Position numbers and translations under genes: made by a program. A stretch of 64,000 nucleotides of DNA from assembly GCA_051002135.1 (NCBI GenBank), contig JBPCMQ010000039.1, positions 25,510 through 89,509 of the forward strand. The letters run 5' to 3'. This document shows, one piece after another, positions 22,562 to 49,257 of the stretch. The notes beneath the pieces were generated by a model. It saw only the letters and a list, made by a program, of their open reading frames with translations, was not told the DNA's origin and ran no database searches. The first letter of the stretch is position 1. Every line of letters begins with the position of its first letter. This DNA is from Chloroflexota bacterium. Lineage in GTDB: Bacteria; Chloroflexota; UBA5177.

Positions 22562-22638
<77 letters not shown>

Positions 22639-28778: not shown

Positions 28779-28844
28779 AGATACCCCCACGTAATTGCTG
28801 CCGGTGCTCGGAACCGGGAGTTTGCCGAGCGCCCGCCTCAATGT

Positions 28845-29237
28845 CTACGAAGACAGGTCCTGCGAGCGGTCCTCGCCCGCCTGCAAGCGCATGATGATGT
28901 CTTTTAGTCGCCAAACTTCGGCGTCGTGTTCGGTTTTGAGAGACTCGATAGTCTCCCCCGCCTGCCTTCGTAGATGCTCCATTTGCTCACGCATGTGGAG
29001 GATGACCTCGACGCCGGCCAGGTTCACGCCAAGCTCGTCCACGAGGCGCCGGATTTGCTGAATGCGCTCAATGTCGTCTAGGGAGAAGTACCGTATCTCC
29101 CCTTTGCCTCGCTGCGGCTCGATCAGGCCGAGACGCTCGTAGTGGCGCAGAGTCTGTTGGTGCACATTGACGATCTCGGCGGCGACGGAGATGGTGTATC
29201 GCCGGAGCTCGCGTCCGCGTCCCTCACTCTGTTTCAT
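28845..29237 (-). CDS. hspR: MerR-family heat-shock repressor HspR
   Basis: YTISVAAEIVNVHQQTLRHYERLGLIEP MerR helix-turn-helix. Position after dnaJ as in hspR operons. Confidence 0.8.
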   Translation of the reverse strand: MKQSEGRGRELRRYTISVAAEIVNVHQQTLRHYERLGLIEPQRGKGEIRYFSLDDIERIQQIRRLVDELGVNLAGVEVILHMREQMEHLRRQAGETIESLKTEHDAEVWRLKDIIMRLQAGEDRSQDLSS

Positions 29238-29255
29238 CTCTTCCCCCCGTCGCAC

Positions 29256-30302: not shown

Positions 30303-30380
30303 GTCGTCAAGAACCCTCGCCAACCTGTGATGGGAGAGGAGATCGGGAGAGCTCGGCTGCCCTGTCGATCTCCCTCTTGC

Positions 30381-30992
30381 CTATTCGCCGCCCACGCTAA
30401 CGATCACCTGAGCCGGTCGCAGGATGTTGTCTCCAAGGGTGTAGCCCTTGCGGACCTCCTGCACGACGGTATGGTCCGGGACACGTGGATCGTCGACAGT
30501 CTGAATCGCTTCTTCCGTGCGTGGGTCGAATGGCTTGCCCTGGGTGTCGATAGCTTGCACGCCTTCTTGCGTAAGAACCTGATCCAGCTGGTACTGGGTC
30601 AGTCGAACGCCCTCGATTATGCTCTCACCGCTGGACTCGCTCGCTCCCCCAAATTGGAGAGCCCGTTCGATGTTGTCACGCACCGCCAGAAGCTTCTTCA
30701 GCAGGTCGTTTTTCGACCGCAGGGCCTCGTCGGCGTAGCGCTGCTCGACGCGGCGCTTGAAGTTATCCATGTCGGCCCGCGCCCGGAGATATTTGTCTTG
30801 GTTGGCCGCGGCCTCGTCCTGAGCTGAGCGGAGTTCTGCCTGCAGCTGTGCCACGTTCGCCGGAGCGTCACGCTCCTCTGGCTGCATGTCTGCCTTCGAG
30901 GCGTGTGATTCGCTCACCTGTTCGTCTGTCTGCTCGAACATTTCGTACTCCCGTGTGGGTCCGGGAGCGGCGTCGTGCCGCTCCTCACCCAT
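30381..30992 (-). CDS. grpE: Nucleotide exchange factor GrpE. Start likely MGEERHD; track start 31037 would overlap dnaK.
   Basis: GrpE coiled-coil plus C-terminal beta domain (DPRTEEAIQ...). Confidence 0.85.
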   Translation of the reverse strand: MGEERHDAAPGPTREYEMFEQTDEQVSESHASKADMQPEERDAPANVAQLQAELRSAQDEAAANQDKYLRARADMDNFKRRVEQRYADEALRSKNDLLKKLLAVRDNIERALQFGGASESSGESIIEGVRLTQYQLDQVLTQEGVQAIDTQGKPFDPRTEEAIQTVDDPRVPDHTVVQEVRKGYTLGDNILRPAQVIVSVGGE

Positions 30993-30996
30993 TCGT

Positions 30997-32826
30997 CTAG
31001 CCTTCGTCGCTTGCTCTGAACTCGGCGTCGACGACATCGTCGGGGCCGGCCTGTTGCCCGCCCTCGCCGCCGCTCGCCGCGCCGGCAGTGGCCGTGGCCT
31101 GGCTGTACAGCGATGAGGCTATGGGGGCCCAAACCTGCTCGAGATTTTCCCGTGCCGTGCGGATCTGGCCGCCGTCGTTGCCCTTGAGGGCCTCGCGCAG
31201 GCCGCCAAGGGCGGTGTCGACGCTCTGGCGGTCGGTCTCCGAGATGCGGTCACCCGACTCTTTCAGGGTCTTTTCTGTGCTGTATGCCAGCATGTCCGCG
31301 TGATTGCGCTCTTCGGCGGCCTGCCGCGCCTCCGCATCCTGCTGTGCGTACTGCTCCGCATCGCGCACCATGCGGTCGATGTCGGCGCTATTGAGGTTTG
31401 TGGAGGCCGTCATTTTGACGGACTGCTCCCGGCCGGTACCCAGGTCCTTGGCGCGTACGCTCAGGATCCCGTTGGCGTCGATATCGAACGTGACCTCGAT
31501 CTGGGGCAGTCCACGTGGGGCCGGGGGAATACCCTCGAGACGGAAGCGTCCCAGTGTCATGTTGTCGCGAGACATCGGCCGTTCCCCTTGCGTCGCATGG
31601 ATGTCGACCGCCGTCTGGCTGTCTTCCGCGGTGCTGTAGACCTCGCTCTTGGCGGTGGGGATGGTGGTGTTGCGCGGGATCAGGACGTTATTGACGCCGC
31701 CCAGGGTCTCGATGCCCAGAGACAGTGGAGTGACGTCGAGAAGCACCACATCCTTGACCTCACCCATCAGCACTCCGGCCTGGATCGCCGCACCAATCGC
31801 GACCACCTCATCCGGATTGACCCCCTGGTGGGGTTCCTTGCCGCTCATCTTCTTGACGAGCTCCTGAATGACGGGCATACGCGTGGATCCCCCGACCAGA
31901 ACCACCTCGTTGATTTGGCTCTCCGTTAGTTTGGAGTCTTCGAGGGCGCGTTTGAACGGCCCGACGCATCTCTGCGTCAGATCGTCGGTCAGCTCCTCGA
32001 ACGTGGCACGTGTGATCGTCTTGATCAGGTGCTTCGGACCGTTCTGATCGGCCGTGATGAAGGGCAGGTTGATCTCGGTCTGAACAACGCTGGACAGCTC
32101 AACCTTGGCTTTTTCGGCGGCTTCGAGAAGACGCTGAAGAGCCTGCCGGTCTTTGCGGAGGTCGATGCCCTCCTCGCGCTGAAACTCGTCGGCCACCCAG
32201 TCCACAATGCGGCGATCATAGTCGTCGCCACCGAGATGCGTGTCCCCGGAGGTAGCCTTTACCTCGAAAACACCGTCGCCGACTTCGAGCACGGACACAT
32301 CGAATGTTCCACCACCCAGGTCGAACACTAGAATCGTTTCAGCCTGTTTTTTGTCGAGTCCGTAGGCCAGCGCCGCGGCCGTCGGCTCATTGATGATGCG
32401 GAGAACCTCGAGACCGGAGATAGTCCCCGCGTCCTTGGTTGCTTGTCTCTGGCTGTCGTTGAAATAGGCAGGCACCGTGATCACTGCCTTGTTGATGGTC
32501 TCTCCCAGGTACTTCTCGGCGTCCGCCTTGAGCTTCCCCAGGATCATCCCCGAAATCTCTTGCGGCGTGTACTGTTTGCCGTCGATGCTCACCGTATCGT
32601 TCGTGCCCATCTTGCGCTTGATTGACGCAATAGTCCGATCCGGGTTGACAACCGCCTGCCGCTTCGCCAGCTGGCCAACCAGGCGCTCGCCCGTTTTCGT
32701 AAATGCCACAACGGACGGCGTGAGACGGCTTCCTTCGGTGTTTGGAACCACCATCGGCTCACCGCCCTCCATGACGGCGACGACGGAATTCGTCGTGCCG
32801 AGGTCGATTCCCACTACCTTCGCCAT
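30997..32826 (-). CDS. dnaK: chaperone DnaK (Hsp70)
   Basis: [22 protein letters not shown] and the other Hsp70 signatures. AAGGAG Shine-Dalgarno 6 nt upstream. Confidence 0.95.
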
Positions 32827-32879
32827 TCTTGACTCCTTAATGATTCAGGATTGCACTTTCCTGCGTGTGATCCTGTCAT

Positions 32880-32908
32880 AGTTTAAATATTGAGTCTGAT
32901 CTTGTCAA
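32880..32908 (-). promoter_or_regulatory. Candidate sigma70-type promoter of the dnaK operon: -35 TTGACA, 17-nt spacer, -10 TAAACT. It overlaps a HAIR-like HspR operator half-site pair (TTGACA-N7-ACTCAA).
   Basis: Minus-strand sequence reads AGTTGACAAGATCAGACTCAATATTTAAACT about 50 nt upstream of the dnaK ATG. Compared with the HAIR consensus CTTGAGT-N7-ACTCAAG: right half perfect, left half 4/6. Confidence 0.4.
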
Positions 32909-32987
32909 CTTTTCGTGTGAGAAAACGCAGGCGGAGCAAGAAAAGAGGCGGGCCGTTTTGGGGCCCGCCTCGGAGAGACCTATCGCA

Positions 32988-35441
32988 TTATCCAGCCGGG
33001 GCCGCGGGGGGCGTGTGCCAGCCGGGGTCGAGACCGGGCAGGAGCACCGCGTCGAAGTGAGCGTATTTGCTCGCCTCCGCGGCGACGGGCCTATCGAGGA
33101 GCGCCCGGGCCACCACCTCGTCCATGTGATCCACCGGAATCAGGTCCAGCTGCGATCGCACGTCGAGAGGAATGTCCTCGAGGTCCTTGCCGTTCTTCGC
33201 CGGAAACAACACGGTACTGACCCCGGCGCGGTGAGCCGCGAGGACCTTTTGTTTCAGACCGCCGATTGGCAGAACCCGACCGCGAAGGGTAATCTCGCCG
33301 GTCATGGCCACGTCGCGACGAGCGTGGCGACCCGATAGCGCGCTCAGCAGGGCCACAGCCATCGTGATGCCTGCCGACGGTCCATCCTTCGGAATGGCGC
33401 CTGCCGGAACGTGGATATGGATGGCGTGTTCGTCGAAGGCGCTGGGCTTGATGCCCAGCTCCCGTGCGCGCGAGTGGACGTAGGACATGGCTGCGCGCGC
33501 CGACTCCTGCATGACGTCGCCGAGTTGGCCGGTCAAGATGAAGTTCGGCTTGCCGTCCATGAGTGTGACCTCGACCGGGATCACGTCCCCGCCGTCGTCC
33601 GTCACCACTAGCCCCGTCGCCACCCCGATCTGGTCGTACTCCTCCGCCACGCCCCACGTGAAACGGGGCGCCTTGAGATAGGTTGCGACGGCGTCGGCGT
33701 CCACCTGAACGGATGAGGCCCCATCCTCGGCAAAGCGGCGCGCTATCTTCCGGCAAATCGATGCGATCTCACGCTCCAGCTGCCGCACGCCGGCTTCCCG
33801 GGTGTATTCACGCACGATGCGGCGAACCGCCTGGGAGGTCATGACCAGCTGCTCTTCCTGGATCCCGTGATTCTTGCGTTGCTTGGGCACGAGGAAGTTG
33901 ACTCCGATCTGCACCTTCTCCTCCTCGGTGTAGCCCGGGAGCTCGATGATCTCCATGCGATCGCGCAGAGCCGCCGGGATCGTGTACAGCACGTTTGCCG
34001 TCGTCACGAAGAGAATGCGCGAGAGGTCGAAGGCGACCTCCAGGTAATGGTCCGAAAACTCTCCGTTCTGCTCCGGGTCCAGGACCTCAAGAAGAGCGGA
34101 AGATGGGTCGCCTCGGAAGTCGGCTCCCACTTTGTCGATCTCATCCAGCATGATGACGGGATTGTTGGTGCCCGCCTGGCGGATGGCCTGGATGACGCGT
34201 CCCGGTAGCGATCCGATGTATGTACGACGATGCCCTCGAATCTCGGCCTCGTCGTGCACTCCGCCAAGCGACATGCGCGCGAACTTGCGACCCATGGCCG
34301 CCGCCACCGACTTCCCGAGGCTGGTCTTGCCCACGCCGGGAGGCCCCACGAGACAGATGATGGGGCTCTTGAGCTCGGTTGTCAGTCTGCGCACCGCCAA
34401 AAATTCGAGCAAGCGCTCCTTGACCATCTCGAGACCGAAGTGATCCCGGTCGAGCTGCTCGGCGGCCGAGTGGAGGTCGAGCTGATCCTCCGTGCTGACC
34501 GACCAGGGCATACCGACAAGCCAGTCGAGGTAGGTTCGAATCATGCCGACCTCCGGCGAGGCCGCCGGCATCCGCTCCAGGCGTTCGGCTTCCTTTTCGG
34601 CCTTCTCGCGCGCCTTTTCCGGCATCGCCGCCGCCTCGATCTTGTCGCGCCACTCCTGGGCTTCGGCTTGCTCGGGGTCCATCTCTCCCAGCTCGCGCTG
34701 GATTTCCTTCATCTGCTCCCGCAGAAGGTACTCCCGCTGCGTCTTGTCTATGTTCTTCTGAACTTCGCTGCTGATCCGATTTTTCAGCTCGAGGATTTCG
34801 ATCTGCTCCGACAGGAGCGCGTGTGCCAGTTTCAAGCGCTCGACCACGTCCAGCGTGACCAGGAGCTGACGGCGCTGTCCCGGCTCCAGCTCCGGCATGT
34901 AGCCCACGAGATCGGCCAGCCACGCCGGATCCTCGACCTCTCGCACCGTCGACAGTGCGTCCGCCGGTATGTTCCCGCGCAAATTGACATAGTTGGTCAT
35001 CAGCTCCTTGACGGTTTGCATCAAGGCGGAGACCTCGCGGGTTTCCTCTATCGCCTGTGAGATGATCTCGACCTCGACCTCTAGGTACGGGTCGACTTTC
35101 GCGAATCCGATCACCCGGACACGATCTTCTCCCTGTGCCAGAAGCTGAACGCTCCCGTCCGGCAGGCGAAACATTGGCCCAAGCGTCGCGACGACGCCGA
35201 TATCCATCAGGTCGTCGGGCCCAACATCCTGCTTGTTCGGATCGATCTGGGTCAACATGACGATGCGGTGAGGACGCTGCTTCACTGCCTCGTCCACGGC
35301 GACCAACGATGGCTTTCGCCCAACCTGGATCGGCTGCATCATTCGCGGGAACACCACAGTCTCGTACAAAGGCAAGACAGGTAAATGCTCGGTGCGCGCG
35401 GGCGGGCTCTCCTCCTCCACGCTCTCTTTTCGTTTCGACAT
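32988..35441 (-). CDS. lon: ATP-dependent Lon protease
   Basis: N-terminal LON domain, AAA+ GPPGVGKTS, and the C-terminal S16 protease serine in PKDGPSAG. Confidence 0.9.
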
Positions 35442-35649: not shown

Positions 35650-36693
35650 CTACGGTGCGAGAGCCAGGGAGCAGCCGTCCTCGGACCCATCTATCCGGCC
35701 TACCGGACAATACAGGCTATCGTTCGAGAGAGCACCGCGGAAGGCCTGACAGTTTTTTGGTTCCAGGGCAACAAGTAGACCTCCGGAGGTCTGAGGATCG
35801 GACAAAAGGTCGGCGGTCACACCGTCGATGTCTTCACCGGCTTGTACGTACCGCTCGACATATGCTTGATTCGTCCTGGTTCCACCGGGAACATGTCCGG
35901 TCGCGGCGTAATCGCGAGCACCGGGCAGCAGAGGAATCGAGGAGATGGAAATGTGAGCGCTCACACCCGAGGCCATGCAGAGGTCCGCCAGGTGACCGAG
36001 CAGGCCGAAGCCCGTGATATCGGTAGCGGCGTGAGCATCGGCCTCGGTCATTGCCGTCGACGCCGAGCGATTCAACGTAGTCATCCAGCGAACCGCTTGT
36101 TCGACGTCCGCCGGCCGTGCCGCTCCTGCCTTGAGCGCCGTCGCGATCACACCCGTCCCCAGCGGCTTGGTCAGTACGAGGACATCGCCGGGCTGGGCCC
36201 CACGGGCCGTCATCATGCGCCGCGGATCGACGGTTCCTGTCACGGCGAGGCCGTATTTTGGCTCCGTGTCGTCGACCGTGTGGCCTCCGACGATCGTCAC
36301 GCCCGCCTCGCGCGCTTTATCGGCTCCCCCGCGCAAAATATCCGCCAGCACGTCCGCACCCAGCGAGGCCATGGGGAAGGCGGCAATATTGAGAGCCGTC
36401 AGGGGCCGCGCCCCCATCGCGAACACGTCACTGAGCGAGTTGGCGGCCGCGATCTGTCCGAACGTGTAGGGATCGTCGACGATGGGCGTGAAAAAGTCGA
36501 CGGTCTGGACCAGGGCAAGGTCGTCGCGCAAGCGGTAGACAGCCGCGTCGTCCGCCGGATTGTCGCCTATTAGGAAGTTGGGATCCTCGCTCCGAGGAAG
36601 GTGGCGCAGCACGTGCGCCAGATCAGCATGGCTGACCTTGCCCGCTCAGCCTGCAGAGCGCACGAGCGAGGTCAGGCGCGCATTGGACTGCAT
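35650..36693 (-). CDS. selD: Selenide, water dikinase (selenophosphate synthetase), selenocysteine-containing form. The in-frame TGA at 36646-36648 encodes Sec in the G-U-AGK motif. Start is the ATG at 36693; track ORF 35650..36612 is only the post-TGA part.
   Basis: Upstream in-frame translation gives MQSNARLTSLVRSAG-[TGA]-AGKVSHADLAHV, matching the SelD N-terminus (E. coli ...[15 protein letters not shown]) with TGA at the Cys/Sec17 position. GGAGG Shine-Dalgarno 6 nt before the ATG. The rest of the protein carries the AIRS-domain motifs DDAAVY, GGHT and PQTSGGLL. Confidence 0.85.
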
Positions 36694-37836: not shown

Positions 37837-38475
37837 TCAGGTTGTGCTTGTCTCAGCGGCTTTACGTTGGCGCTTCTTCTTGTCTGCCGCCTGGCTGCGC
37901 GTCTGCGACCAGACCGAATAGAGCCGCTGCAGGGCCGTGAGGTGGGTCAGCACGGCGAGAATGACGAGGGCAGCCAGCGTCGTGCGCTCCTGAAACAGCA
38001 GTCCGATGCCGAGAATCAGAACCCGCTCCGGCCGCGGCACGATGCCTACTGTGGCGTCCAGACCCAGCCCTTCGGCGCGTGCACGGGCATAGCTGATGAG
38101 GATGGATCCGACGGCGACGACGTACACCAGGAGGACGCTCGCGGTCTGGTGGCGAACCGTGAACTGAAAGATCAAAGCAAGCAAAACCGCGGCTTCGGAA
38201 TAGCGGTCGAGCAAAGAGTCGAGGAAGGCGCCAAAGTCGCTCTGCCGCGAGGTCACGCGCGCCAGGGCGCCGTCAAGCATGTCGAACAGGCCGGCGAGAA
38301 ACAGCAACGCCCCGCCCGTGCTCAGATGTCCTTTCGCTATGACGCCGGCGGTAACCACGTTGAAGACAAAGCCGGCGACGGTGATCGCATTGGGCGTCAC
38401 TCCATGCCGAGCGAGCGGCCGCGCAACGACCTCCGCCACGCTTCGGGCCCAGATCTGGAGGAATCGGGGAACCAT
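37837..38475 (-). CDS. CDP-alcohol phosphatidyltransferase (phosphatidylinositol(-phosphate) synthase-like)
   Basis: DMLDGALAR...G...DSLLDRYSE matches the D-G-x2-A-R-x8-G-x3-D-x3-D motif. Multi-TM protein. Confidence 0.75.
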   Translation of the reverse strand: MVPRFLQIWARSVAEVVARPLARHGVTPNAITVAGFVFNVVTAGVIAKGHLSTGGALLFLAGLFDMLDGALARVTSRQSDFGAFLDSLLDRYSEAAVLLALIFQFTVRHQTASVLLVYVVAVGSILISYARARAEGLGLDATVGIVPRPERVLILGIGLLFQERTTLAALVILAVLTHLTALQRLYSVWSQTRSQAADKKKRQRKAAETSTT

Positions 38476-38477
38476 CG

Positions 38478-39677
38478 TTAGATGGAGGGATTCGGCACGG
38501 TGATGGGGGCGGGTGAGTAACTGGCCACGGCACGCTCCCCGGTTTTGACGTAAAGATCAAGCAGCTGCTCGGCAATGCGCTGCCAGGAGTACTGGCTGCT
38601 GGTCTCGAGCCCGCGCCTTCCCATTTCCGCCCCAAGGCCGCGATCCTGCAGAACGGAGCATACGGCGTCGGCCAGGGCGTGCTCGTCGCGTGGCGGCACC
38701 AGGAACCCCTCGGCGCCGTTGGTGACGACCTCGCTATACCCCTCGATGTTGCTCGCAACCACGGGAACACCCGCTGCCATGGCCTCGAGCAAGACGATTC
38801 CGAAGCTCTCGCCGGAGACGGCCGGAGCGCACATGACGTTGGCACTGCGGAGGTAGCGCGGCAGTTCCTCCTCGGAGACGCGGCCCACGATTTGAATATC
38901 GTGCATGTCGTGGCGTTCGATGTAGCGGCGGTAGCGAGAATCGTTCCAGTCTCCGGCGCCGACCACCACGAAACGTGCGTCGGGGAAGGCGTTCTTGATG
39001 TGCGGGTATGCACGGAGCAGATATCCGACACCCTTGCGTTTCTCGGGGCGGCCAACAAAAAGGATATTGGGGCGCCCGTCCATCAGCTCTCGGATGGGCT
39101 CAACCCGACGTGGATCGAATCGTTGGACCTCGACTCCGTTCGGAATCACCCTGTACGGGGCCATGAAGTACTGCCGCACAAAGCGTTTCGCGGCGCGAGA
39201 CACGGCGATGCGCGCGTCGAGCTTGTTGAACACCCGTCGAAGAACGGGACGACCGTAGAAATACCCGTAATACGAGCCTCGATATGCGTGGAACGTGCCC
39301 ACGTTGACCGCGTCCGAATACATGAGGACCGTGGGCGGCAGGGAGGGCATCAGTGGCTCGTGCGCATGGACGACGTCGAATCTTTCCGCGGTGAGTACTT
39401 CGTGGACGCGACGTGACAGGCGAAACGAGAGCGTGATGCGTGCGATCGAGCCGTTGGCGTGGACCTTCCGCACGTTTCCGATGCGGTACACGTCGGTCTC
39501 GTCGCGCTCCAGATTGCGATTGGACGAGGGCGCCATGATTCGCACATCGTGTCCCATGGCACTGAATTCCCGGTACAGGTGTCCGACGTGGCTCGTGACC
39601 CCGCCGGGGTATGGGTAGTCGTACGGCGAGACGAGCGCTATCTTCATCGGTTGGCTTTCCAACCGGAGGTGAACCAT
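38478..39677 (-). CDS. GT-B retaining glycosyltransferase (Pfam Glycos_transf_1 / CAZy GT4), PimA-like
   Basis: MKIALVSPYDYPYPGGV N-terminus and C-terminal E-x7-E region (ESFGIVLLEAMAAGVPVV). Confidence 0.75.
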   Translation of the reverse strand: MVHLRLESQPMKIALVSPYDYPYPGGVTSHVGHLYREFSAMGHDVRIMAPSSNRNLERDETDVYRIGNVRKVHANGSIARITLSFRLSRRVHEVLTAERFDVVHAHEPLMPSLPPTVLMYSDAVNVGTFHAYRGSYYGYFYGRPVLRRVFNKLDARIAVSRAAKRFVRQYFMAPYRVIPNGVEVQRFDPRRVEPIRELMDGRPNILFVGRPEKRKGVGYLLRAYPHIKNAFPDARFVVVGAGDWNDSRYRRYIERHDMHDIQIVGRVSEEELPRYLRSANVMCAPAVSGESFGIVLLEAMAAGVPVVASNIEGYSEVVTNGAEGFLVPPRDEHALADAVCSVLQDRGLGAEMGRRGLETSSQYSWQRIAEQLLDLYVKTGERAVASYSPAPITVPNPSI

Positions 39678-39698
39678 CCCATCATGCGCACCGCTTCC

Positions 39699-40703
39699 CT
39701 ACGAGATGTCCTTTCCGCCCACCCGTGCTCGCGAGTGTCGCCCTATGCTAGCAGCCGCGTCAGTACCTGCGCCGGAATCCCAGACCGGGCTGAAGGCCAG
39801 CCATTGTTCCGGGTGGGCGCGAATCGCGGCCTCGATGACCCGGGCTATTCTCGCGGTATTCTCCGTGTCGTCGACCTTCTCATCGCCGGTCAACTCTAAC
39901 GGAATCGGCAAGATGATACCGTGAAACCTACCCGAAGGGAGGCGGATACCGACAGCCATGACCACGGGCGCGCCAAACCGGCGGGCGAGCGCCGCGGCGC
40001 CGGTTGGAAGTGCCGCCGGCCGCCCGAAGAATGGGACCTGTGCCGTCCGCCCGCTGATCACGCGGTCGCCGGCCACGGCCACGACCTGTCCAGCTCGGAG
40101 GGCACGAAGCATGGCCCGAGGGGCGTGATCCAGGGGAACCACATCCACCCCCTGGCTCCGCCTACTGACCGCCAAGAAGTCGAATAGAACGGGTGGCTCC
40201 ATTCTCTCCACGGGAATGGTCACCTGGAATCCCTTCGCCGCCACGACCTGACCGACGAGGTCGAAGTTGCCGAGATGGACGAGCATCAGGACGACGCCTC
40301 GCCCTTGGGATGCCGCCTGCACCAGGTGCTCCCACCCGTCGACGTCCACGAGGTCGATGAGCTGGGAGCGAGTCAGCCGTCCGATACGAAGAGTGTCCAC
40401 CCAGTTCCTGGCATCGGTTCTGAACGCCTCGCGAGCAGCACGACGTACCGTTGGGTCCCGGACGGACGCCGTCAGAACGACGGACAGATTTGCCAGGATG
40501 GAGCGCCTGGCGGGAACGACGACGTAGAAGGCTAGGAACCCGGCGCCGGATGCCAGGGCGTAGGCGAGCGAGAGCGGAATGAATCGCATCATCCAGGTGA
40601 GCGAGCGGAGGAGCAGGTACAGCACGTAGTTGCGTGTCACCGGCACGTCCGCGATGGCTTGCTCGGATACAGCCGAAACCGGCCGGCGTCTGCCGGCCGC
40701 CAT
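39699..40703 (-). CDS. Lysophospholipid/lipid A-type acyltransferase (LpxL/HtrB family), analogous to the PIM acyltransferase
   Basis: N-terminal TM segment. HLGNFD (HxxxxD acyltransferase motif). Family-typical length. Confidence 0.7.
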   Translation of the reverse strand: MAAGRRRPVSAVSEQAIADVPVTRNYVLYLLLRSLTWMMRFIPLSLAYALASGAGFLAFYVVVPARRSILANLSVVLTASVRDPTVRRAAREAFRTDARNWVDTLRIGRLTRSQLIDLVDVDGWEHLVQAASQGRGVVLMLVHLGNFDLVGQVVAAKGFQVTIPVERMEPPVLFDFLAVSRRSQGVDVVPLDHAPRAMLRALRAGQVVAVAGDRVISGRTAQVPFFGRPAALPTGAAALARRFGAPVVMAVGIRLPSGRFHGIILPIPLELTGDEKVDDTENTARIARVIEAAIRAHPEQWLAFSPVWDSGAGTDAAASIGRHSRARVGGKDIS

Positions 40704-40732
40704 CGCGGATTGCGACGGGTGGAGGTGAAGAC

Positions 40733-41839
40733 CTAGGCCACGGTCGCCACTACCGGCTCAACCACTTGGGCCGTGGCTCGGATGAACGCCGCCGTCATCT
40801 CTCGCGCCTTGGAGTCGGTATATTGGACCGGCGGCGATTTCATGAAATACGCCGAGGGCCCTTCCAGGGCTCCGGCGATGTTGTGATCGAGAGCAAGTTT
40901 GATGCACCGGATCGCGTCGATCACGACGCCGGCGGAGTTCGGCGAGTCCCAGACTTCCAGCTTGAGCTCGGCGTTGAGCGGGACGTCTCCGAAAGAGCGA
41001 CCCTCCATGCGTATGTACGCCCACTTGCGGTCCGTGAGCCAGGGAACGTAATCGCTCGGCCCAATGTGAACGTTCTTCGCACCCACATCGTAGTCCAGCT
41101 GCGAGGTGACGGCGTTGGTCTTGGAGATCTTCTTGGACTCCAGACGCTCCCTCTCCAGCATGTTGAGAAAATCCGTGTTGCCACCGACATTAAGCTGGCT
41201 CGTGTGCTCCATGCGGACTCCACGATCGCGGAAAAGGTTCGTCAGGACGCGGTGCACTATCGTCGCACCCACCTGGGATTTGATATCGTCCCCGATGATG
41301 GGTAGGCCCGCTTGCTCGAAACGACGCCGCCAGTAGTCTTCACGGCCAATGAACACCGGAATGCAGTTGATGAAACCGCAGCCCGCCTGCAGCACCTGCT
41401 CGACGTACCATTTGGTTGCCTGCTCGCTGCCCACCGGGAGATAGCTGATGACCACGTCCGTTTGCGTGTCTTTCAAGATCTGCACGATGTCAGCCGTTGG
41501 TCCAGGAGCCTTGGTGATGACCTCGGAGAGGTATTTTCCGAGCCCATCATGGGTCATGCCACGATTGACCTTGACGTCGAGGTGCGGCACCTCCGAGAAC
41601 GTGTAGGTGTTGTTCTGACCCGAAAAGATGGCAAGGGACAGATCCTTGCCGACCTTCTCGACGTCGATATCGAACGCGCAGCTGAACTCAATGTCGCGAA
41701 CGTGGTATCCGCCGAGGTTGACGTGCATCAGCCCGGGAACAAATTCGTCCTCTGAGGAGTTCTGGTAATACTGAACGCCCTGAACCAGCGCGGAGGCGCA
41801 GTTCCCAACTCCAACTATTCCCACTCGAATCTTTGACAC
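40733..41839 (-). CDS. ino1: myo-inositol-1-phosphate synthase
   Basis: [21 protein letters not shown]-binding N-terminus, and the conserved core ([14 protein letters not shown]) of the bacterial/archaeal MIPS family. Confidence 0.85.
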
Positions 41840-41854
41840 TCTTTGTCTCCTTCT

Positions 41855-42160
41855 TTACTTAGGACCGGCGCCGTTCGTGACGAGCCGACTCGTATCCGCT
41901 GCTTCGTGGCGAGGTGGCGATTCACCGTTGAGAAGCGCCTCCAGACGCCGTTGGTATCCCTGCATCGCGTTTCTGTCCAGCGAGCAAAACACGATCCTGC
42001 CGGCCTTGCGCGTCTGGACGATTCCCGCCTTCCGCAGGAGGCTCAGATGCCACGACACAAGTGGCTGGCTGAGCCGCAACCGTTTGCTGAGGTCCGTTAC
42101 CGACATCTCCCCATTCTGAGCCAGGTATTGCACGATCGCCAGCCGCTTGCGGTCAGCCAT
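41855..42160 (-). CDS. ArsR/SmtB-family transcriptional regulator. Start at MADRKRL; track ORF extends to 42208.
   Basis: LAIVQYLAQNGEMSVTDLSKRLRLSQPLVSWHLSLLRKAGIV winged HTH. The stop lies 15 nt upstream of ino1. Confidence 0.75.
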   Translation of the reverse strand: MADRKRLAIVQYLAQNGEMSVTDLSKRLRLSQPLVSWHLSLLRKAGIVQTRKAGRIVFCSLDRNAMQGYQRRLEALLNGESPPRHEAADTSRLVTNGAGPK

Positions 42161-42237
42161 GGACCGGTAATAGAGAAAGAGATCTTGCACATACCACCCG
42201 CTACCCATAAGGGGAATTTTATTAAATAGATATTTAT

Positions 42238-42266
42238 ATATTAGCCGTACGAGGTGGCAAAGTCAA
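42238..42266 (-). promoter_or_regulatory. Near-consensus sigma70 promoter (-35 TTGACT, 17-nt spacer, -10 TAATAT) within a conspicuous AT-rich island upstream of arsR-ino1
   Basis: Minus strand reads TTGACTTTGCCACCTCGTACGGCTAATAT, followed by the AT-rich AAATATCTATTTAATAAAATT. The surroundings are GC-rich. Confidence 0.45.
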
Positions 42267-42352
42267 GGCAGTAGTGGTCTCGCCCAGCTGGAGGGTGGCC
42301 AGGGGGTGGCCAGGGGCAGGGGGAATCGAGGCATCCCGATTACCCGCTGCAA

Positions 42353-44100
42353 TCACCGTGCGACGGAGGACACGGAGGCCGGCCGCTCGCTCGGCGAGCG
42401 CGATCCCGGCTGGTATCGCTGGACGAAGAACGAATGCAGCTCCGTGGCGTCCTCCACGCCGGCAAAAGACTCGCTGATCTCTCGCGACGAGACCATAAAG
42501 GGAAACATCTGCACGCCCCCCAGCCCTCCATGCGCGCCGCCATGATCCTCGAAGTTGACGACTCGCGCCCCGTCGAACGCCCCAAAGACCAGCATATCTC
42601 CCGCGGACGGCATCCGGGCCAGGTTGACGAGCTGGTGCCGAACGAGCTCAGGTGTGTCGTACAGGGCGAGCCAGGCGAGCTCATCGGATTCCGCATTGTC
42701 CAGGACGACCTCGCCTCCTTTGTGGAGCGCCAGAGTTTTGCCATTCTCCTGGATCAAGACCAAACCAACGCCGGGATGCTCCACCAGCGATCGCAGCATT
42801 CCCGGTGCACGGTGGTCGATTTCCCCACGGTTCATGCGTTTTGGAACGTCCACAAAGTAGACATTGGCCAGAGCACTGGAATAGATCGCCAGCAGGGGGG
42901 CATTCTCGTTGTCGGCCAAGCCGGCCTGCAGTGGTCCGGTGCCAATGCGCATCGCCACCCGCATGGCTCGGTCAACGATGAAACTGGTGGCCGAGCTGGT
43001 GCGTGGTCCGATCTCGGCGGAAAGCTCCTCCACCTGGTGAAGGGTCGCGGCGTCCTTGAAGGTGCGGCTTTCCATCTCCTGGGCCATGGGCGGACTCACC
43101 CCGTGAGAGGCGAGGAAATGTCCTAAAGTCTCGCCGTAGAGCTCGTGAAACGGCAGTGACTCGGTCATACCGTGATCGCTCATCACAAAGAGATCGTAGG
43201 GCCTCAGGGCTATTGTCTCGATGGCGCGATGCACGTCTCGAATCTGGCGGTCGAGGGCTTTGAGCGTCCGATACGCTCCCCCGCTCCTGGGACCGAGGTG
43301 GTGGGCTACCTCGTCATAGCCGATGTAGTTGGCGTAGATGGCGGGCACACCGCGAAAGATGTCCAAGCGTATGGCCAGAGTGGTCAGCTCGCGAAAGAGC
43401 ACGTGCGTGAAAGCACGCGTCAGGGGGAATATCCCCTCCGGCGCCACATACGTCCGCCGCAGCCGTCCCATCGCCTGCTGGTACAGCTCGATGAAGACTT
43501 CGGCGACAGTCAAAATGGCGGCTCGCGCCAGCCGCCAGGGGTTTAGCACGAGCAGCAAGAAGGCGTCGATGCCTGTCAATCGGGGAGGAAACCGCGTTCG
43601 TCCCAGGGCACTGGTTGTGAAAACGGCGCGCTGTGCGCCTCCACTCGCCATCCCTGTGTAGACACTGCCATGTCGGAACAGACCCGCCTGCCCGCCCGCG
43701 TTTTCGGCCTCAACCGTCGCCATGTCCAACGGCCAGCTGCAGATCAGGGGGCGCTGTTTTCTCTTGTCGAACCAATAGAAACCGGGGATATTTGGCTTGC
43801 GGCCATACATCATCGAACATTGGATAGCTGCCGTATCGCTCGGTTGCCCGCAGCGCCACAGGGCCACCTGATGCGATGATGAGAGCAGATGACTTAGGCA
43901 TGGCATGTACCCACGCTCGAGAGCGACGGATAGGTCGTGGTGGGAGAGGGCGTCGATCTGAAGGACGACGAACCCTCGACGCCGGCGCTCGATCTCGCTG
44001 AACGGAAGACGGAGACGGCGAAGCGTTGCGGCCGCCTTCAGAGCTCCCAACGTTCCCCCTAATGACAGATGCACGTGATTACTCCAGCATTCCGCTTTGG
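42353..44100 (-). CDS. Alkaline-phosphatase-superfamily protein (type I phosphodiesterase/nucleotide pyrophosphatase family). The true start is uncertain; the track start at 44290 would overlap divergent moaC.
   Basis: VLQIDALSHHDL near the N-terminus, YIGYDEVAHHLGP, LFVMSDHGM, metal-ligand motifs of the AlkP core. Confidence 0.5.
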
Positions 44101-44167
44101 TGCGAAACCTGCCGATTCTAGCGGCTTGCAGCACGACAACCGAAACACGTAGCCCGAGGCTTGAGCC

Positions 44168-44665
44168 ATGAGAGACGACTCGTTCGGATCCCGACTGACC
44201 CACGTCGATGAGGACGGAGAGGCGCGTATGGTCGACGTCACAGACAAGGACGTCACCGTGCGCGAAGCGCGAGCGCGCGCCGCCGTGCATATGTCCAGCG
44301 AGACCCTCGAGCTCTTACGGACCGTGAGCGCGCGCAAGGGCGACGCGCTGGCGGTCGCTCGCATCGCCGGCATCCTGGCGGCGAAGCGCACGTCCACGCT
44401 TATCCCGCTGTGTCACGGCCTCCCCCTCTCGACGGTGCGTGTGGAGCTCGAGCTGGACGCCGCGACGCAGACGGTCCTCATCGAGGCGTATTGCCGAACG
44501 GAGGCCAAGACTGGGGTCGAGATGGAGGCCTTGATGGCAGTTTCGGTGGCGGCCCTAACCGTCTACGACATGTGCAAAGCGGTGGACAGGGCGATGACGA
44601 TTGACGACATTCACGTGACGTACAAGTCGGGCGGCCGCAGTGGAATTTTTGAGAACGAGAGATAG
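44168..44665 (+). CDS. moaC: cyclic pyranopterin monophosphate synthase MoaC
   Basis: LTHVDEDG, ARAAVHM, KGD, LIPLCHGL and IEAYCRTE are canonical MoaC motifs. Confidence 0.9.
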   Translation: MRDDSFGSRLTHVDEDGEARMVDVTDKDVTVREARARAAVHMSSETLELLRTVSARKGDALAVARIAGILAAKRTSTLIPLCHGLPLSTVRVELELDAATQTVLIEAYCRTEAKTGVEMEALMAVSVAALTVYDMCKAVDRAMTIDDIHVTYKSGGRSGIFENER

Positions 44666-44687: not shown

Positions 44688-46115
44688 TCAGACGATCTGG
44701 TACTCCCTGATTTTCGCGTACAGCAGCCCGCGGTGAATGCCCAGGAGCTTTGACGCCTGACTGCGATCTCCGCCGGCTTGCTGCAAGGCGGCCTCGATAG
44801 CCTGGCGCTCGGTCTCGCCGACGATATCCTTCAGGGCTATGCCATTGGCCACCTTTTCTGCGACATGAGCGTCGAGCAGCGCACCGCGCTTCCCGGGCGC
44901 TCCAATGAAAGCGATCTGGGACGGCATGATGACCGAGCCGCGCGCCTGAATGATCGCCCGGTGCACCGTGTTCTCGAGCTCGCGCACGTTTCCGGGCCAC
45001 GAATAGTCCATGAGCGTGTCCAGGGCTTCCTCGGAAATTCGTGGATTGTTGTCCGGCGCGTCACTACGGTACTTTTGCAAAAAATGCTCGGCGAGTAACG
45101 GCACGTCGTCCATTCTGTCTCGTAGGGGTGGCAGCTCGAGGGCAATGACGTTCAGCCGGTAGTACAGGTCCTCGCGGAACCGACCCTCCGCCACCTCCTC
45201 CGCGAGGTCGCGATTGGTTGCGGCAACAATCCGGGTGTCGACCTTGATCGGCACGCTACTGCCGACACGCTCGAACTCGCGCTCCTGTAGGACTCGCAGG
45301 AATTTTTTCTGAGTGTTGAGCGACATCTCACGGATCTCGTCGAGGAAAATGGTTCCCTTGTCGGCCATCTCAAAGCGGCCCTTGCGGGTCTTTACGGCGC
45401 TGGTGAAGCTTCCCGCCTCGTGACCAAAGAGCTCGCTTTCCAGCAGAGACTCGGTCAGAGAGGCGCACGGCACCTTGACATACGGACCGTTTCGGCGGTG
45501 GGAGTTGAAATGGATGGCCCCCGCGACCAGCTCCTTGCCGGTGCCACTCTCGCCGGTCACGAGCACCGTTGCGTCCGTCCGCGCCACCCTCCCGATGGTC
45601 TTGTACACCTGCTGCATGACCGCCGTATTTCCGATGATGTTGTCGAGCGGATCACGGATCGTCTCGTCCACCGCCCGCGCCTTTATCGCCAAATCACGGT
45701 GATCCAGCGTCCGGCGCACGGTCATGAGCAGATCATCCAGCTCGAACGGCTTGGTGACATAGTCGTACGCGCCCCTCTGAATCGCCTCGATGGCGATGTT
45801 GGAGGTCCCATATGCCGTCATCATCAGGACCGGGATCGCATCCATGTTGAGGCGTTTCATCTGGTCGAGGACCTCGAGACCGGTCATTCCCGGCATGCGG
45901 ACATCCATGATCACGAGGTCGGGCCGATGTTTGTTGATCGCCGGAACGACGTCCCGGCCCGCCTTGACCTCCGCCGTGCGAAATCCCTCGGCGTCGAGAA
46001 AGCTTTGTAGCAAGCCTCGAATCGACTGATCGTCATCCGCAACCAAGATCAGCCGTTCGGCCTTGGTCGTTGACGCCGTCTTAGCGGCTTCCGGGGACTC
46101 TACCTGGTCGACCAT
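44688..46115 (-). CDS. Sigma-54-dependent response regulator (NtrC/Fis family): receiver, AAA+ sigma-54 activation domain, HTH
   Basis: Receiver domain with DDD...[14 protein letters not shown] Walker [16 protein letters not shown] as a GAFTGA-type loop. C-terminal Fis-type HTH. Confidence 0.85.
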
Positions 46116-46243: not shown

Positions 46244-48133
46244 GTGAGATATGAGGGGGTGACAGTGAAAGTCATCGGCACGGCCGGCCACATCGACCAC
46301 GGCAAGTCGACGCTCGTGCGCCATCTCACCGGTATCGATCCCGACCGGTTGGAGGAGGAGAAACGCCGCGGCATGACCATCGATCTCGGGTTCGCCTGGT
46401 TCTCCATGCCGTCCGGGGAGACCGTCAGCGTCGTGGATGTGCCGGGGCATGAGCGCTTCGTCAAAACCATGCTGGCCGGTGCGGCGGGAATCGACATGGC
46501 GCTGGTGGTCATCGCGGTCGACGAGGGCGTCATGCCGCAGACTCGGGAGCACCTGGATATTCTCGAGCTCCTCGAGGTACGGCGAGGCGTCGTGGCGCTG
46601 ACCAAAACGGATCTGGTGGATGAGGAGTGGGTGGGCCTGATCACGGATCAGGTGCGTGAGGCGCTCAGCCACCGCATCCTTGGGCGTATGGCGATAGTCC
46701 CGGTCAGCTCCGTCACCGGCGCCGGCATCGACACTCTTCTGGCACGCATGTCCTTTGAGCTGGCGAAGATCGGCGATCGACCGCAGGCCACCGTGCATTA
46801 TCTTCCGGTGGATCGTGTCTTCGCCATGAAGGGATTCGGTACCGTGCTGACAGGAACTCTGCAGGGCGGAGAGATCCGACAGGGAGACCCGATCGAAATC
46901 GTACCCGGCGGCCGGCGAGGTCGCATCCGGGGACTACAAACGCACAACAACCTGGCAGAGCGCGCGGCGGTGGGTGACCGGGTCGCGTTGAACGTCGTCG
47001 GTCTGTCCCGCGACGATGTCCGTCGCGGCGATGTGGCCGCGGAACCGGGGACAATTGTCGAGACGGATCACGTCGACGCCTTCGTGCGCGTTTTGCCCGA
47101 GGCTCGGGCGCCGCTCGTCCATGGCGCGCAGGTTATGGCTCATCTTGGCGCCGCCGAGCGCTCCGCTGCGATCCGCGTACTGTCCGGATCTGTCATCGAG
47201 CCGGGCTCGTCGGGATGGGTACGCCTGCGCTTCGGCGACTCGGTTGGGGTCATTCGGCGACAACATGTGGTTCTGCGAGTGCCGGCGCCGGGGCGGACGA
47301 TTGCCGGCGGTCTCGTGGCCGACCCCAGTCCGGCCCGGCGTCGAATCGATGCTGCCGGTCTTGAACGTCTCGAAAGTCTCCTCTCGGACAATCTCCACAT
47401 AGCCGCTGAAGCCGCCCTCAGCGGCAGGCGTCCCCGAACGGCTCCCGAGATCGCGCGCCTGCTCGGCGTGGACGTCGAGACGTCGTCGCGGACCTTGAAC
47501 CATGTGGTTGCGAACGGGTGCGCGCGCCGCCTAAGCAACAGCTACGTGACAGGTGCCGGTTGGCAGCAGATGACCGAGCGCATCCGAGCGAAGCTCGCGA
47601 AGTATCACGAGACATTTCCCTCTCGACGGGGTATGCCGCGTGAGGAGCTCCGCCGCAAAGTGGGATGGACGGTTGACACCTGGAGTGCCGCCCTCACCGC
47701 ACTCGAGCGTGACGAAACGGTCCGCACACGAGATTCGGTAGTCAGTTTGCCTGACCACCGGGGCGGCATCGACGATCGGCGTGAGCAGGCGGACCGGGTC
47801 ATCGCCTTACTCCGCCAAACTCCGTATGCTCCTCCCGCGGCGTCTGCCGCCATCGGGCAGGTAGGCGCGGATTCTTCCCTCCTCCTGGCGATGGTAGAGG
47901 AGGGTTCTCTCGTGCGCGTCGACGAGGATCTGTACTTCGACCGAGAGACATTGGAGGCGATGACGGTGCGGGTTCTGGATTCCATCAGAAGTGAGGGTCA
48001 GGTAACGGTGGCACAAGTGCGCGACGCCTTCGGCACATCTCGCAAGTACGCCCTTGCTACCCTCGAGTACCTCGACGGCGAGCATCTCACACGCAGAATC
48101 GGAGAGGCCCGGATCCTCGGCAGTAAAGCGTGA
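46244..48133 (+). CDS. selB: selenocysteine-specific translation elongation factor SelB
   Basis: EF-Tu-like GTPase N-terminus ([26 protein letters not shown]). Long C-terminal extension with repeated winged-helix-like segments, as in SelB, and total length of 629 aa. Confidence 0.85.
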
Positions 48134-49257
48134 TGCGCGTCGGCCTCTCTGCGTACCTGCTTCATCGGGGCAGCGACTACCGGGCAGCCGGCGTCAGCGT
48201 GTATATCTATCAGCTGCTGACACATCTGGTGCGGGAGGGCGGAAACGATTACCTGGCGTTCGTTGGGGACGATGCGCCGCCGATCGACGGACTGCCATAT
48301 GTGGTTAGCCCGGTCACCACGCGGGCTGCCTCCTGGAGGATCCCCTGGGAGCAGCTCGTCGTGCCGATTCAGGCCCGGTCTCGGGGAATCGACGTTCTCC
48401 ATGCCACGGTGAACGTCGCCCCCGTACTGTTTCCCGGACCCATCGTCGTGACGGTGCACGATCTGGCCTTCCTGAGGTACCCCGAGCTCTTCGCCCGCCA
48501 AAAGGCACTTTATCTCAAGGCGGCGGTCAAGATATCGGTGCGGAGGGCGGATCAGATCATCGCCGTCTCGGAGAATACCCGAAACGATCTGATCGACCTG
48601 ATGGATGTCAGACCGGACCGCGTCTCGGTGATCCATCATGGCGTCGATCGGTCCTTTCGCCCGCTGGAAAGCCGCGACTTCGCCGCCACGCGCGCTCGCC
48701 TCGATCAGAAGCGGCCGTACGTCCTCTACGTTGGGACCCTCGAGCCCCGCAAGAATGTGGATGTTTTGATATCGGCGTTCGCGCGCGCGCGGGAGAATCT
48801 CGCATTGCCCCATCAGCTGGTGCTCGCTGGAGCGCCGGGGTGGAGGTATGAAAACCTCTTCCAGCAGGTCTCGGAGCTAGGGCTCCAGGACGAGGTTAAG
48901 TTCCTGGGGTACGTGGACCCGGGCCTCCTGGCCCTCTGGTATAATGCCGCTGATCTGTTCGTCTACCCGCCCGCGTACGAGGGGTTTGGCCTGCCGTTGC
49001 TTGAGGCGATGTCGTGCGGCGTTCCGTGCATCACGTCCGCATCGAGCGCCCTGAGGGAGATCGGCGGCGGTGCCTGTCTTCAGGTGGAACCAGGGTCGGA
49101 GGAAGGTCTGCAGATGGCGATCACTCGCATGGTGACGGATCCTGCGCTGCGCGCTCGCCTGCGACAGGAGGGGGTTCGCCGTGCTTCCAATTTCACCTGG
49201 AGCAGAGCGGCCCGCGAGACTCTGACCGTTTACGCGCGAGCGGCTTCACACTCGTGA
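48130..49257 (+). CDS. GT-B retaining glycosyltransferase (Glycos_transf_1 / CAZy GT4)
   Basis: VGTLEPRKN, and FGLPLLEAMSCGVPCI (E-x7-E). Start overlaps the selB stop (ATGA). Confidence 0.75.
   Translation: MMRVGLSAYLLHRGSDYRAAGVSVYIYQLLTHLVREGGNDYLAFVGDDAPPIDGLPYVVSPVTTRAASWRIPWEQLVVPIQARSRGIDVLHATVNVAPVLFPGPIVVTVHDLAFLRYPELFARQKALYLKAAVKISVRRADQIIAVSENTRNDLIDLMDVRPDRVSVIHHGVDRSFRPLESRDFAATRARLDQKRPYVLYVGTLEPRKNVDVLISAFARARENLALPHQLVLAGAPGWRYENLFQQVSELGLQDEVKFLGYVDPGLLALWYNAADLFVYPPAYEGFGLPLLEAMSCGVPCITSASSALREIGGGACLQVEPGSEEGLQMAITRMVTDPALRARLRQEGVRRASNFTWSRAARETLTVYARAASHS

Follow-up and report, generated by a model that had tools for sequence, protein, structure and literature searches.

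A five-gene operon on the minus strand of a 64-kb stretch of Chloroflexota DNA (hereafter the window) is predicted to be an uncharacterised Chloroflexota variant of the actinobacterial early phosphatidylinositol (PI) mannoside (PIM) pathway. It encodes an ArsR-family regulator, a myo-inositol phosphate synthase, a PatA-like acyltransferase, a PimA-like glycosyltransferase of family GT4, and a CDP-alcohol phosphatidyltransferase that uses inositol phosphate. Taken as a whole, we consider it moderately likely that the operon makes an inositol phospholipid and turns it into an acylated glycosyl-PI resembling Ac1PIM1, under an autoregulated ArsR repressor. The best solved relative of all four enzymes was a mycobacterial PI/PIM enzyme. 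PIMs, like the operon for their synthesis, are regarded as an actinobacterial hallmark, and inositol lipids are considered rare in bacteria (PMC9246714). In cultured Chloroflexota, PI ranks among the major polar lipids, and unidentified glycolipids and cell-wall mannose have also been reported (PMC12453558).

Locus and sequence analysis

The DNA came from a metagenome-assembled genome (MAG) of a soil Chloroflexota bacterium (contig JBPCMQ010000039.1; genome GC content, ~62%), and the same cluster was also present on a Joint Genome Institute (JGI) metagenome contig. An earlier reading of the letters alone (the sequence-only reading) had judged the host unlikely to be actinobacterial, citing a sigma-54 enhancer-binding-protein gene at 44688-46115; that gene is real (Sigma54_activat, E 7e-71), and the host is indeed not actinobacterial.

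Genes were identified with Pfam and NCBIfam models for each open reading frame (ORF), and each enzyme was compared by sequence with all solved structures. For synteny, an alignment of GT4 homologues was scanned over one genome per species, giving 178 relatives, of which the best 80 loci were analysed. Neighbours were counted by tblastn of the window proteins against these 80 loci, with only loci that had enough flank in the denominators. The background for motif searches was 1.05 Mb (related loci plus the window, both strands). What these data show directly is which genes are present, their homology and synteny, and the conservation of residues and motifs.

Operon structure and predicted inositol phospholipid synthesis

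In transcription order, the operon comprises the ArsR-family regulator (41855-42208; 117 amino acids [aa] as the longest ORF; HTH_5/ArsR, E 1.6e-14), myo-inositol-3-phosphate (L-Ins-1-P) synthase (MIPS; 40733-41839; 368 aa; Inos-1-P_synth PF01658, E 9e-38), the PatA-like member of the lipid A acyltransferase family (39699-40703; 334 aa; Lip_A_acyltrans PF03279, E 1e-41), the PimA-like GT4 of GT-B type (38478-39647 from Met11, 389 aa; longest ORF, 38478-39677, 399 aa; Glyco_transf_4 plus Glycos_transf_1, E 1e-40), and the CDP-alcohol phosphatidyltransferase of the inositol-phosphate type, a phosphatidylinositol phosphate (PIP) synthase (37837-38475; 212 aa; CDP-OH_P_transf PF01066, E 1.7e-18). 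The ORF list and the Pfam/NCBIfam matches thus agree with the sequence-only reading on five co-directional minus-strand genes, their positions, and their order. Its spacing of 15 to 30 nucleotides (nt) between genes holds only roughly: the gaps are 15, 29, 21, and 2 nt, and the third widens to 51 nt with Met11 as the GT4 start, the choice made by NCBI and seen in nearly all homologues. No RNA element was found in or near the operon by Rfam and tRNA scans.

The operon very probably directs inositol phospholipid synthesis. MIPS matched Mycobacterium tuberculosis Ino1 (1gr0) at E 2.8e-141 over residues 3-353 (351 residues) and PF01658 at 129 bits (cut-off, 27). The closest solved relative of the transferase was M. 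tuberculosis PgsA1 (6h5a; E 5e-25), and its NCBIfam scores were 161 bits for archaetidylinositol phosphate synthase (AIPS; NF040950; cut-off, 180), 144 for the BT1523-type PIP synthase (PIPS; NF052561; cut-off, 350), 138 for PIPSynth (NF045883), and only 38 for PgsA, the phosphatidylglycerol (PG) synthase model. Since these scores lie below the cut-offs and between archaeal and bacterial models, the protein is filed as a family member, not as an equivalog. Its signature D1xxD2GxxAR...GxxxD3xxxD4 is complete (equivalents of D68, D71, G72, A75, R76, G85, D89, and D93), and the positively charged inositol-phosphate pocket is kept (R94, S132, R137, R152, R155, and R195, with K135 replaced by R; Y133 is also kept); in PgsA1, R94, R155, and R195 are ligands of the phosphate group of inositol phosphate (Ins-P) and have been linked to Ins-P use (PMC6506517). 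The retained pocket and signature aspartates argue for an Ins-P-using PIP/AIP synthase, not a PG or phosphatidylserine synthase. The sequence-only reading, which had called this gene a PI synthase, is supported as to a PI-type enzyme, here specified as a predicted PIP synthase: the protein groups with AIPS/PIPS models rather than with PG synthases, and its best solved relative is PgsA1.

Glycosyltransferase and acyltransferase

The GT4 aligned with Mycobacterium smegmatis PimA (4n9w, 2gej) over its full length (residues 10-378) at 197 bits (E 5e-57; 36% identity). No other solved GT4 exceeded 93 bits, a score reached by the next match through the C-terminal domain only. Most other solved GT4s, including PimB' and MshA, likewise aligned only through the C-terminal nucleotide-sugar domain, and BshA-type enzymes gave full-length alignments but at most 67 bits. 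As an internal control, the other GT4 of the window (48130-49257) scored only 42 bits against PimA, again in the C-terminal domain only; reciprocally, tblastn of M. smegmatis PimA in the window gave 188 bits for the operon gene versus 50 for the next. An AlphaFold 2 model (pLDDT 82, pTM 0.80) placed PimA at Foldseek ranks 1 to 3 (E 6e-25; TM 0.73-0.78), with other GT4s close behind, the generic GT-B fold being only mildly discriminating. These matches bear out the PimA-like label, with PimA, not a non-PIM GT4 enzyme, as the closest relative.

The residue roles of PimA, including critical Y9, Q18, Y62, N63, and R68 and the docking-predicted inositol contact N97, have been described (PMC9202250). 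All catalytic and β-phosphate/mannose ligands are kept in the window protein (G15, G16, R196, K202, E274-S275-F276, E282, H118, E199, and R201), as are P14-G16 (pairwise and multiple alignment) and the acceptor-side residues Y9, N63, and R68. The basic amphipathic helix by which PimA associates with the membrane (77-RKVKK-81) aligns with RLSRRVHEV, which is basic with fewer Lys/Arg; the model places helices at 67-76 and 78-88. JGI annotation of the GT4 homologues reads phosphatidylinositol alpha-mannosyltransferase. A PI-glycoside is the likely product, and mannose is slightly favoured as the sugar transferred. The kept and replaced residues do not by themselves assign the donor sugar nucleotide or the precise acceptor.

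The acyltransferase, which the sequence-only reading had described as LpxL/HtrB type, does belong to the lipid A acyltransferase family, with PatA closest (5f2t, E 8e-18, versus only 1e-8 for a lipid A lauroyl acyltransferase of the LpxL/LpxM type). Chloroflexota are generally regarded as monoderms without lipid A, a view that the sortase gene of the window fits, so a lipid A role is unlikely. PatA residues H126 (the catalytic His), D131 (motif H-L-G-N-F-D), E149, and R164 are kept and E200, of the charge relay, is D; Glu or Asp is used at the E200 block (PMC4792965). Among the residues predicted to bind PIM, E149 is kept and Q287 is S. Judged from these residues, the catalytic machinery is intact in the PIP synthase and in the PimA-like and PatA-like enzymes. 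With scores under the equivalog cut-offs and specificity unread, the proteins are named PimA-like, PatA-like, and PIPS family.

Weighing the pathway

Several observations weigh against this pathway. MIPS scored 527 bits on TIGR03450 (mycothiol_INO1), below the equivalog cut-off of 638; the transferase reached no equivalog cut-off (PIPSynth, 138 against 170); the top model for the acyltransferase, PIM acyltransferase NF005919, gave 143.5 bits against 209; and no PimA-specific NCBIfam model matched the GT4, whose best score was below the equivalog cut-off. Of the PimA acceptor residues, Q18 is replaced by T (with Q or N next to it in many orthologues), Y62 by A, and N97 by L; of the guanine/ribose contacts, D252 is S, D253 is E, and K256 is L, with V251 kept. 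The docking-predicted inositol contact H284 of PatA (PMC4792965) is L. The 64 kb contain no candidate PHP-, PgpA-, or PAP2-type phosphatase for PIP, and the gene order (patA, pimA, PIP synthase) departs from the mycobacterial one (pgsA1, patA, pimA).

GT4 specificity is notoriously hard to read from sequence. Together with the substitutions Q18T, Y62A, N97L, D252S, and K256L in the GT4 and H284L in the acyltransferase, the lack of an NCBIfam equivalog for the GT4, and a lysophospholipid acyltransferase as the second-best NCBIfam model for the acyltransferase, this leaves some room for a different product, in which PI is made but the GT4 and acyltransferase build another glycolipid (a glycosyl-diacylglycerol, or a PI/PIP glycoside with glucose, GlcNAc, or another sugar) or the acyltransferase is a general lysophospholipid acyltransferase, and not a PIM. 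We regard such a product as rather unlikely, given that the N-terminal acceptor domain of the GT4 aligns with PimA, in contrast to most other solved GT4s, that Y9, N63, R68, H118, and R201 on the acceptor side are kept, and that the D253 equivalent is conservatively acidic (E or D) in most orthologues. Linkage of the GT4 to a PIP synthase in 57 of 58 loci and a GT-C gene of the PMT type (a polyprenyl-phosphate-mannose-dependent family) abutting the cluster in one related lineage speak for a PIM-like product as well.

A soluble inositol derivative (a compatible solute such as di-myo-inositol phosphate or a glycosyl-inositol) or a precursor of a mycothiol-like thiol is very improbable as the product. 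MIPS also feeds such pathways and has mycothiol_INO1 as its best model, the transferase weakly matched di-myo-inositol phosphate phosphate synthase (DIPPS; 70 bits), and MshA was among the GT4 matches (E 6e-18). Set against these, the transferase scored 138-161 bits on the lipid PIPS/AIPS models versus 70 on DIPPS and is without the cytidylyltransferase domain of IPCT/DIPPS, MshA reached 68 bits versus 197 for PimA, a membrane acyltransferase of the PatA/LpxL family has no role in those pathways, and the cluster contains no mshB/C/D-like genes.

The sequence-only reading had recognised the gene set for PI and acylated PIM synthesis known from Actinobacteria, and this is supported as a prediction, with several PimA and PatA acceptor contacts differing. 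In the acylated glycosyl-PI pathway so proposed, MIPS would cyclise glucose-6-phosphate to inositol phosphate, and the CDP-alcohol transferase would join inositol phosphate to CDP-diacylglycerol, giving PIP. A phosphatase encoded outside the operon, elsewhere in the genome, would convert PIP to PI. The PimA-like GT-B enzyme would then transfer a hexose to inositol at the membrane surface, most likely from GDP-mannose, and the PatA-like enzyme would place an acyl chain from acyl-CoA on that sugar. The substrates, the sugar, the order of these steps, and DNA binding by the regulator are proposed from homology, residues, and synteny.

Conservation of the cluster in relatives

The best 80 loci were essentially all from Chloroflexota MAGs (Chloroflexia, Anaerolineae, Dehalococcoidia, Ktedonobacter, and Ardenticatenaceae), with a few evidently mislabelled bins among them, and shared a conserved co-directional layout: [ArsR]-[MIPS]-PatA-like-PatA-like-PimA-like-PIP synthase. 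The PIP synthase adjoined the GT4 in all but one of the 58 loci noted above; at least one PatA-like gene lay by the GT4 in 64/70 loci and at least two in 47/59, MIPS in 27/52, and ArsR in 28/52. The core of PatA-like, PimA-like, and PIP synthase genes is almost invariant, and MIPS and ArsR are each present in about half.

The tandem PatA-like paralogues of relatives (L002-L015 and most others; e.g., L002 6064-6909 and 6975-7895) are ~30% identical to each other, and three are present in L037 and L065. They could carry out two different acylation steps. The single PatA-like gene of the window is an orthologue of the second tandem paralogue, and no trace of the first is left in the 29-nt gap between MIPS and PatA; a chimeric origin from both paralogues was considered and rejected, all three thirds of the protein being closest to paralogue 2.

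In a lineage of 70% GC (L082-L085), the order is ArsR, PIP synthase, MIPS, PatA, PatA, PHP, GT4, and the GT4s are 45-50% identical to Chloroflexota GT4s and 36-38% identical to M. smegmatis PimA. Directly 3' of the GT4, on the opposite strand, these loci carry the convergent PMT-family GT-C gene, which is giant (1047-1796 aa), and a sortase gene lies a few kb upstream of the cluster. The GT-C could serve further lipid mannosylation or protein O-mannosylation.

A PHP-domain phosphoesterase lies between the second PatA-like gene and the GT4 in 25/59 loci, in the more distant clusters. The protein is ~245-290 aa long with a very basic C-terminal tail (L016-L019, L026, L033 [7256-7993], L037, and others; L083 [11465-12313]). 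In L083-L085 the gene overlaps both neighbours by a few bases, which marks it as a pathway member in the 70% GC genomes. No enzyme is assigned to the conversion of PIP to PI in the mycobacterial-type pathway; the only one known, from Bacteroides, is PgpA-like (PMC9246714). Embedded in the clusters as it is, the PHP protein of relatives is therefore a candidate PIP phosphatase. No PHP homologue was found in the 64-kb window by tblastn with the PHP proteins of three relatives, and none is present in the closest clade; no PgpA-like protein was found in the window either. A PAP2 protein that the sequence-only reading had placed in the window was not found there: none appeared among six-frame ORFs of at least 100 aa searched for the PSGH and SRx5Hx3D motifs or in Pfam searches of essentially all larger ORFs.

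A DAO-type flavoprotein and a 4HBT thioesterase are frequent companions of PHP in these clusters. In some Anaerolineae-type clusters (L033 [9191-10321], L037 [9185-10372 and 7423-8004], and L065), a DAO-family FAD oxidoreductase lies between the GT4 and the PIP synthase, and a 4HBT/PaaI-type thioesterase gene precedes the GT4.

Regulator and upstream site

The ArsR-family protein quite likely represses its own operon through a dyad in the promoter, as judged from the features of the protein and of the DNA upstream of its gene. It has an ArsR-type winged helix-turn-helix (HTH_5, 53.9 bits, cut-off 22; NF033788, 78.7 bits, cut-off 55), and its nearest solved relatives are of the HlyU/BigR type (HlyU, E 3e-10; SqrR/BigR-type proteins). 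Its likely true start is the GTG at 42190, giving 111 aa (NCBI call). Across orthologous regulators the recognition helix SQPL.SWHL is invariant, and a single Cys in the motif GR..xCSL is conserved in at least 90%. The protein has no α3 CXC and no His in the α5 region (the α5 Asp/His/His/Glu site is missing), so it is not a classical metal sensor, and with only one conserved Cys the two-Cys persulfide/redox switch of BigR, SqrR, and HlyU is impossible.

A protein search with the regulator found only 63 relatives at E<=1e-8. The four homologues on long contigs (45-51% identity), all from the 70% GC lineage, each stand first in a cluster that also holds genes for PIP synthase, MIPS, two acyltransferases, PHP, and GT4, most neighbours overlapping slightly or lying a short distance apart. 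The searches from the GT4 side and from the ArsR side agree and thereby tie the regulator to the gene set from both directions.

Upstream of the operon, the AT-rich island of the sequence-only reading is real: 28 of the 29 positions from 42243 to 42215 are A/T. Its near-consensus promoter TTGACT-17-TAATAT (42266..42238, minus strand) stands in part. The -35 hexamer TTGACT (42261..42266, minus) and, 17 nt after it, the -10 hexamer TAATAT (42238..42243, minus) are present and conserved in relatives, but the bare match is not above chance (1 in 10 kb versus 2.4 ± 1.5 in shuffles). The promoter is taken as functional from conservation across loci, not from the hexamer match itself. Ten aligned upstream regions were unalignable save for TTGAC, which was invariant, a 17- to 18-nt spacer, TAAYAT, and an A/T block; TAAYAT at this spacing was conserved in 28 distinct sites, and the conserved block also precedes the ArsR gene in distant classes.

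Column-wise conservation over the 28 distinct sites reads TAAtATATAA-acGnttc-TTTAT, and the family consensus is a dyad, ATAAAC-N4-GTTTAT or equivalently TATAAA-N6-TTTATA, that starts inside the -10 hexamer. Perfect ATATATAA-N8-TTATATAT palindromes occur in several loci (L044, L048, L059, and L078), and the 70% GC lineage carries the related ATCAAC-N4-GTTGAT and ATAAAC-N4-GTTGAT. In the window, the putative ArsR operator TATAAA-TATCTA-TTTAAT (42221..42238, minus) extends over the end of the -10 hexamer and the probable start of transcription. The composite pattern TTGAC.{16,19}TA[AT][CTA]NT[AC][TC]AA occurred 30 times in the 1.05-Mb background, and 29 of these sites, 28 in related loci and one in the window, lay on the strand of the cluster, 60-200 nt upstream of an ArsR gene. 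This position points to an autoregulated operator, with ArsR as the protein that would bind it, and the upstream site is better described as a conserved promoter plus operator. A search for extra operator copies with the perfect 8-N8-8 palindrome of distant relatives (<=3 mismatches) gave none and missed the degenerate site of the window too.

The regulator gene could instead be an unrelated stress or metal sensor that merely lies upstream, with the AT-rich block as a strong constitutive promoter only. We consider this improbable. The chance-level promoter match, the absence of the ArsR gene from about half of the related clusters, and the imperfect right half of the window operator (4/6 positions) would fit it, and the last also tells against our own model. 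An unrelated metal sensor is hard to reconcile with a protein that has one Cys and neither CXC nor α5 His/Asp metal sites, and mere adjacency is hard to reconcile with cluster linkage across lineages whose GT4s are ~45-50% identical, even where MIPS is missing, with a dyad conserved alongside an invariant recognition helix, or with the position-specific motif. Under the repressor model, a dimer of this non-metal-type ArsR-family protein would most likely repress its own operon by occluding the -10 hexamer and the transcription start via the dyad.

A CTTATG element (42206..42211, minus) contains the first in-frame ATG of the regulator ORF and is conserved in the closest clade only. In the alignment of upstream regions, the ATG is out of frame with the coding sequence in L003 and L004, which supports the GTG start called by NCBI; CTTATG is probably a DNA- or leader-level element rather than a start codon.

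Other genes in the window

Downstream of the operon, DUF1611 and SelD genes follow at gaps of 50 and ~28 nt with no terminator and are possibly co-transcribed. These two genes and an upstream gene of the alkaline phosphatase superfamily are syntenic in the closest clade only (64-76% GT4 identity) and were for that reason left out of the system. SelD (35650-36693, minus) has an in-frame TGA (36648-36646) in the motif SAG-U-AGK, with a good Shine-Dalgarno sequence and ATG upstream (at 36693), and on these grounds is probably a selenoprotein in its own right; only the portion beyond the TGA is listed by the ORF finder. SelB (46244-48133) lies 10 kb from SelD, and no tRNA-Sec was found in the window by ARAGORN and Rfam. 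The window holds two paralogous alkaline-phosphatase-superfamily proteins (Pfam Phosphodiest; 42353-44290, minus, and 5646-7511, plus), with no NCBIfam match. The former is the immediate upstream neighbour of the operon; as its 645-aa ORF runs into the MoaC gene (44168-44665, plus), the protein must in fact begin later than the ORF does. With synteny confined to the closest clade and a position behind the promoter, it was not assigned as the pathway phosphatase.

A GT-C-like protein that the sequence-only reading had tentatively linked to the pathway (15678-17354, plus) found no support, with no Pfam match at E<=0.05 and no PDB match at E<=1. It is a polytopic membrane protein of 558 aa, 20 kb from the operon and not linked to it, and the GT-C label is neither confirmed nor excluded. 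Other envelope-related genes are the generic GT4, which overlaps a Bac_transf/CoA_binding_3 polyprenyl-phosphate sugar transferase (48130-50717, plus), a UDP-glucose/GDP-mannose dehydrogenase-family protein beside a Glycos_transf_4 (MraY/WecA-type) protein (10631-13234, plus), and the sortase (20840-21520, plus), whose ORF start overlaps tRNA-His (20755-20830). A Phd/YefM antitoxin and PIN-domain toxin pair (21753-22597, minus) adjoins tRNA-Val. A heat-shock block (26160-35441, minus) encodes Lon, DnaK, GrpE, DnaJ, a MerR-family (HspR-like) regulator (28845-29255), and ClpB. The dnaK-grpE-dnaJ-hspR arrangement is typical of Actinobacteria, and the block would be another actinobacterial-style trait of this Chloroflexota genome.

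Novelty and significance

The bare gene assignment is not new, automated JGI annotation having already labelled the GT4 homologues. The new elements are a variant of the early PIM module of Actinobacteria that is conserved throughout the phylum, with ino1 and a dedicated regulator in the operon, together with its conserved operator and, in relatives, the duplicated acyltransferases and the embedded PHP phosphoesterase. Literature searches turned up nothing on PimA, PIMs, or this regulator in Chloroflexi and no description of the operator ATAAAC-N4-GTTTAT or of ArsR control of inositol glycolipid genes.

A tentative extension, somewhat unlikely as it stands, is that the phylum Chloroflexota makes acylated PI-glycosides (PIM-like, possibly anchors of larger glycans) through an ancient module shared with Actinobacteria. 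If so, control of the module would fall to a dedicated ArsR-family repressor, not described before, whose operator is conserved across classes; the PIP phosphatase of the pathway would be the PHP phosphoesterase found in many clusters, and each of the two PatA paralogues would have its own acylation to perform. Conservation of the module in at least 178 Chloroflexota genomes at species level suggests that PI-based glycolipids may be a wider feature of monoderm Terrabacteria envelopes, and the module would account genetically for the PI and the "unidentified glycolipids" that taxonomy papers on Chloroflexota routinely report (PMC12453558). For the control of such a pathway, the regulator/operator pair would offer a first point of entry, and the PHP gene is a concrete, testable candidate for the missing enzymatic step.

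Comparison with known systems

On the side of regulation, the closest known proteins are the non-metal-sensing ArsR/SmtB members HlyU, BigR/SqrR, and NolR. They share the winged-helix ArsR fold family with the window regulator, and the likeness extends to a small dimeric repressor that would bind an AT-rich dyad overlapping its own promoter. The window regulator differs in having one conserved Cys and in its putative target genes, those of inositol glycolipid synthesis.

Two further systems share the lipid chemistry. The Bacteroides thetaiotaomicron cluster BT_1522-BT_1526 (PMC9246714) likewise has MIPS and an Ins-P-dependent PIP synthase, with a PIP intermediate that needs a phosphatase; it differs in having a PgpA-like PIP phosphatase and an inositol-phosphoceramide synthase and in being without a PimA-like glycosyltransferase or PatA-like acyltransferase, and the window transferase scored far under the cut-off of the BT1523-type model. 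Archaeal AIPS, the top NCBIfam model for the transferase, uses the same chemistry of CDP-lipid and Ins-P, but the score was under its cut-off, the host is bacterial, and the neighbouring genes are of a bacterial, actinobacterial type.

The closest known system is the early PIM operon of Corynebacterineae, with pgsA1, patA, and pimA (M. tuberculosis Rv2612c, Rv2611c, and Rv2610c) (PMC3229680). It shares the same three enzyme families, adjacent and co-directional, and the route to PI via inositol phosphate and PIP. The window operon, which belongs to another phylum, differs in carrying ino1 and a dedicated ArsR gene inside, without the ThrRS, HIT, and Nudix genes, and in a PimA homologue of 36% identity with substituted acceptor and guanine contacts; its Chloroflexota relatives carry, in addition, two PatA paralogues and a PHP phosphoesterase.

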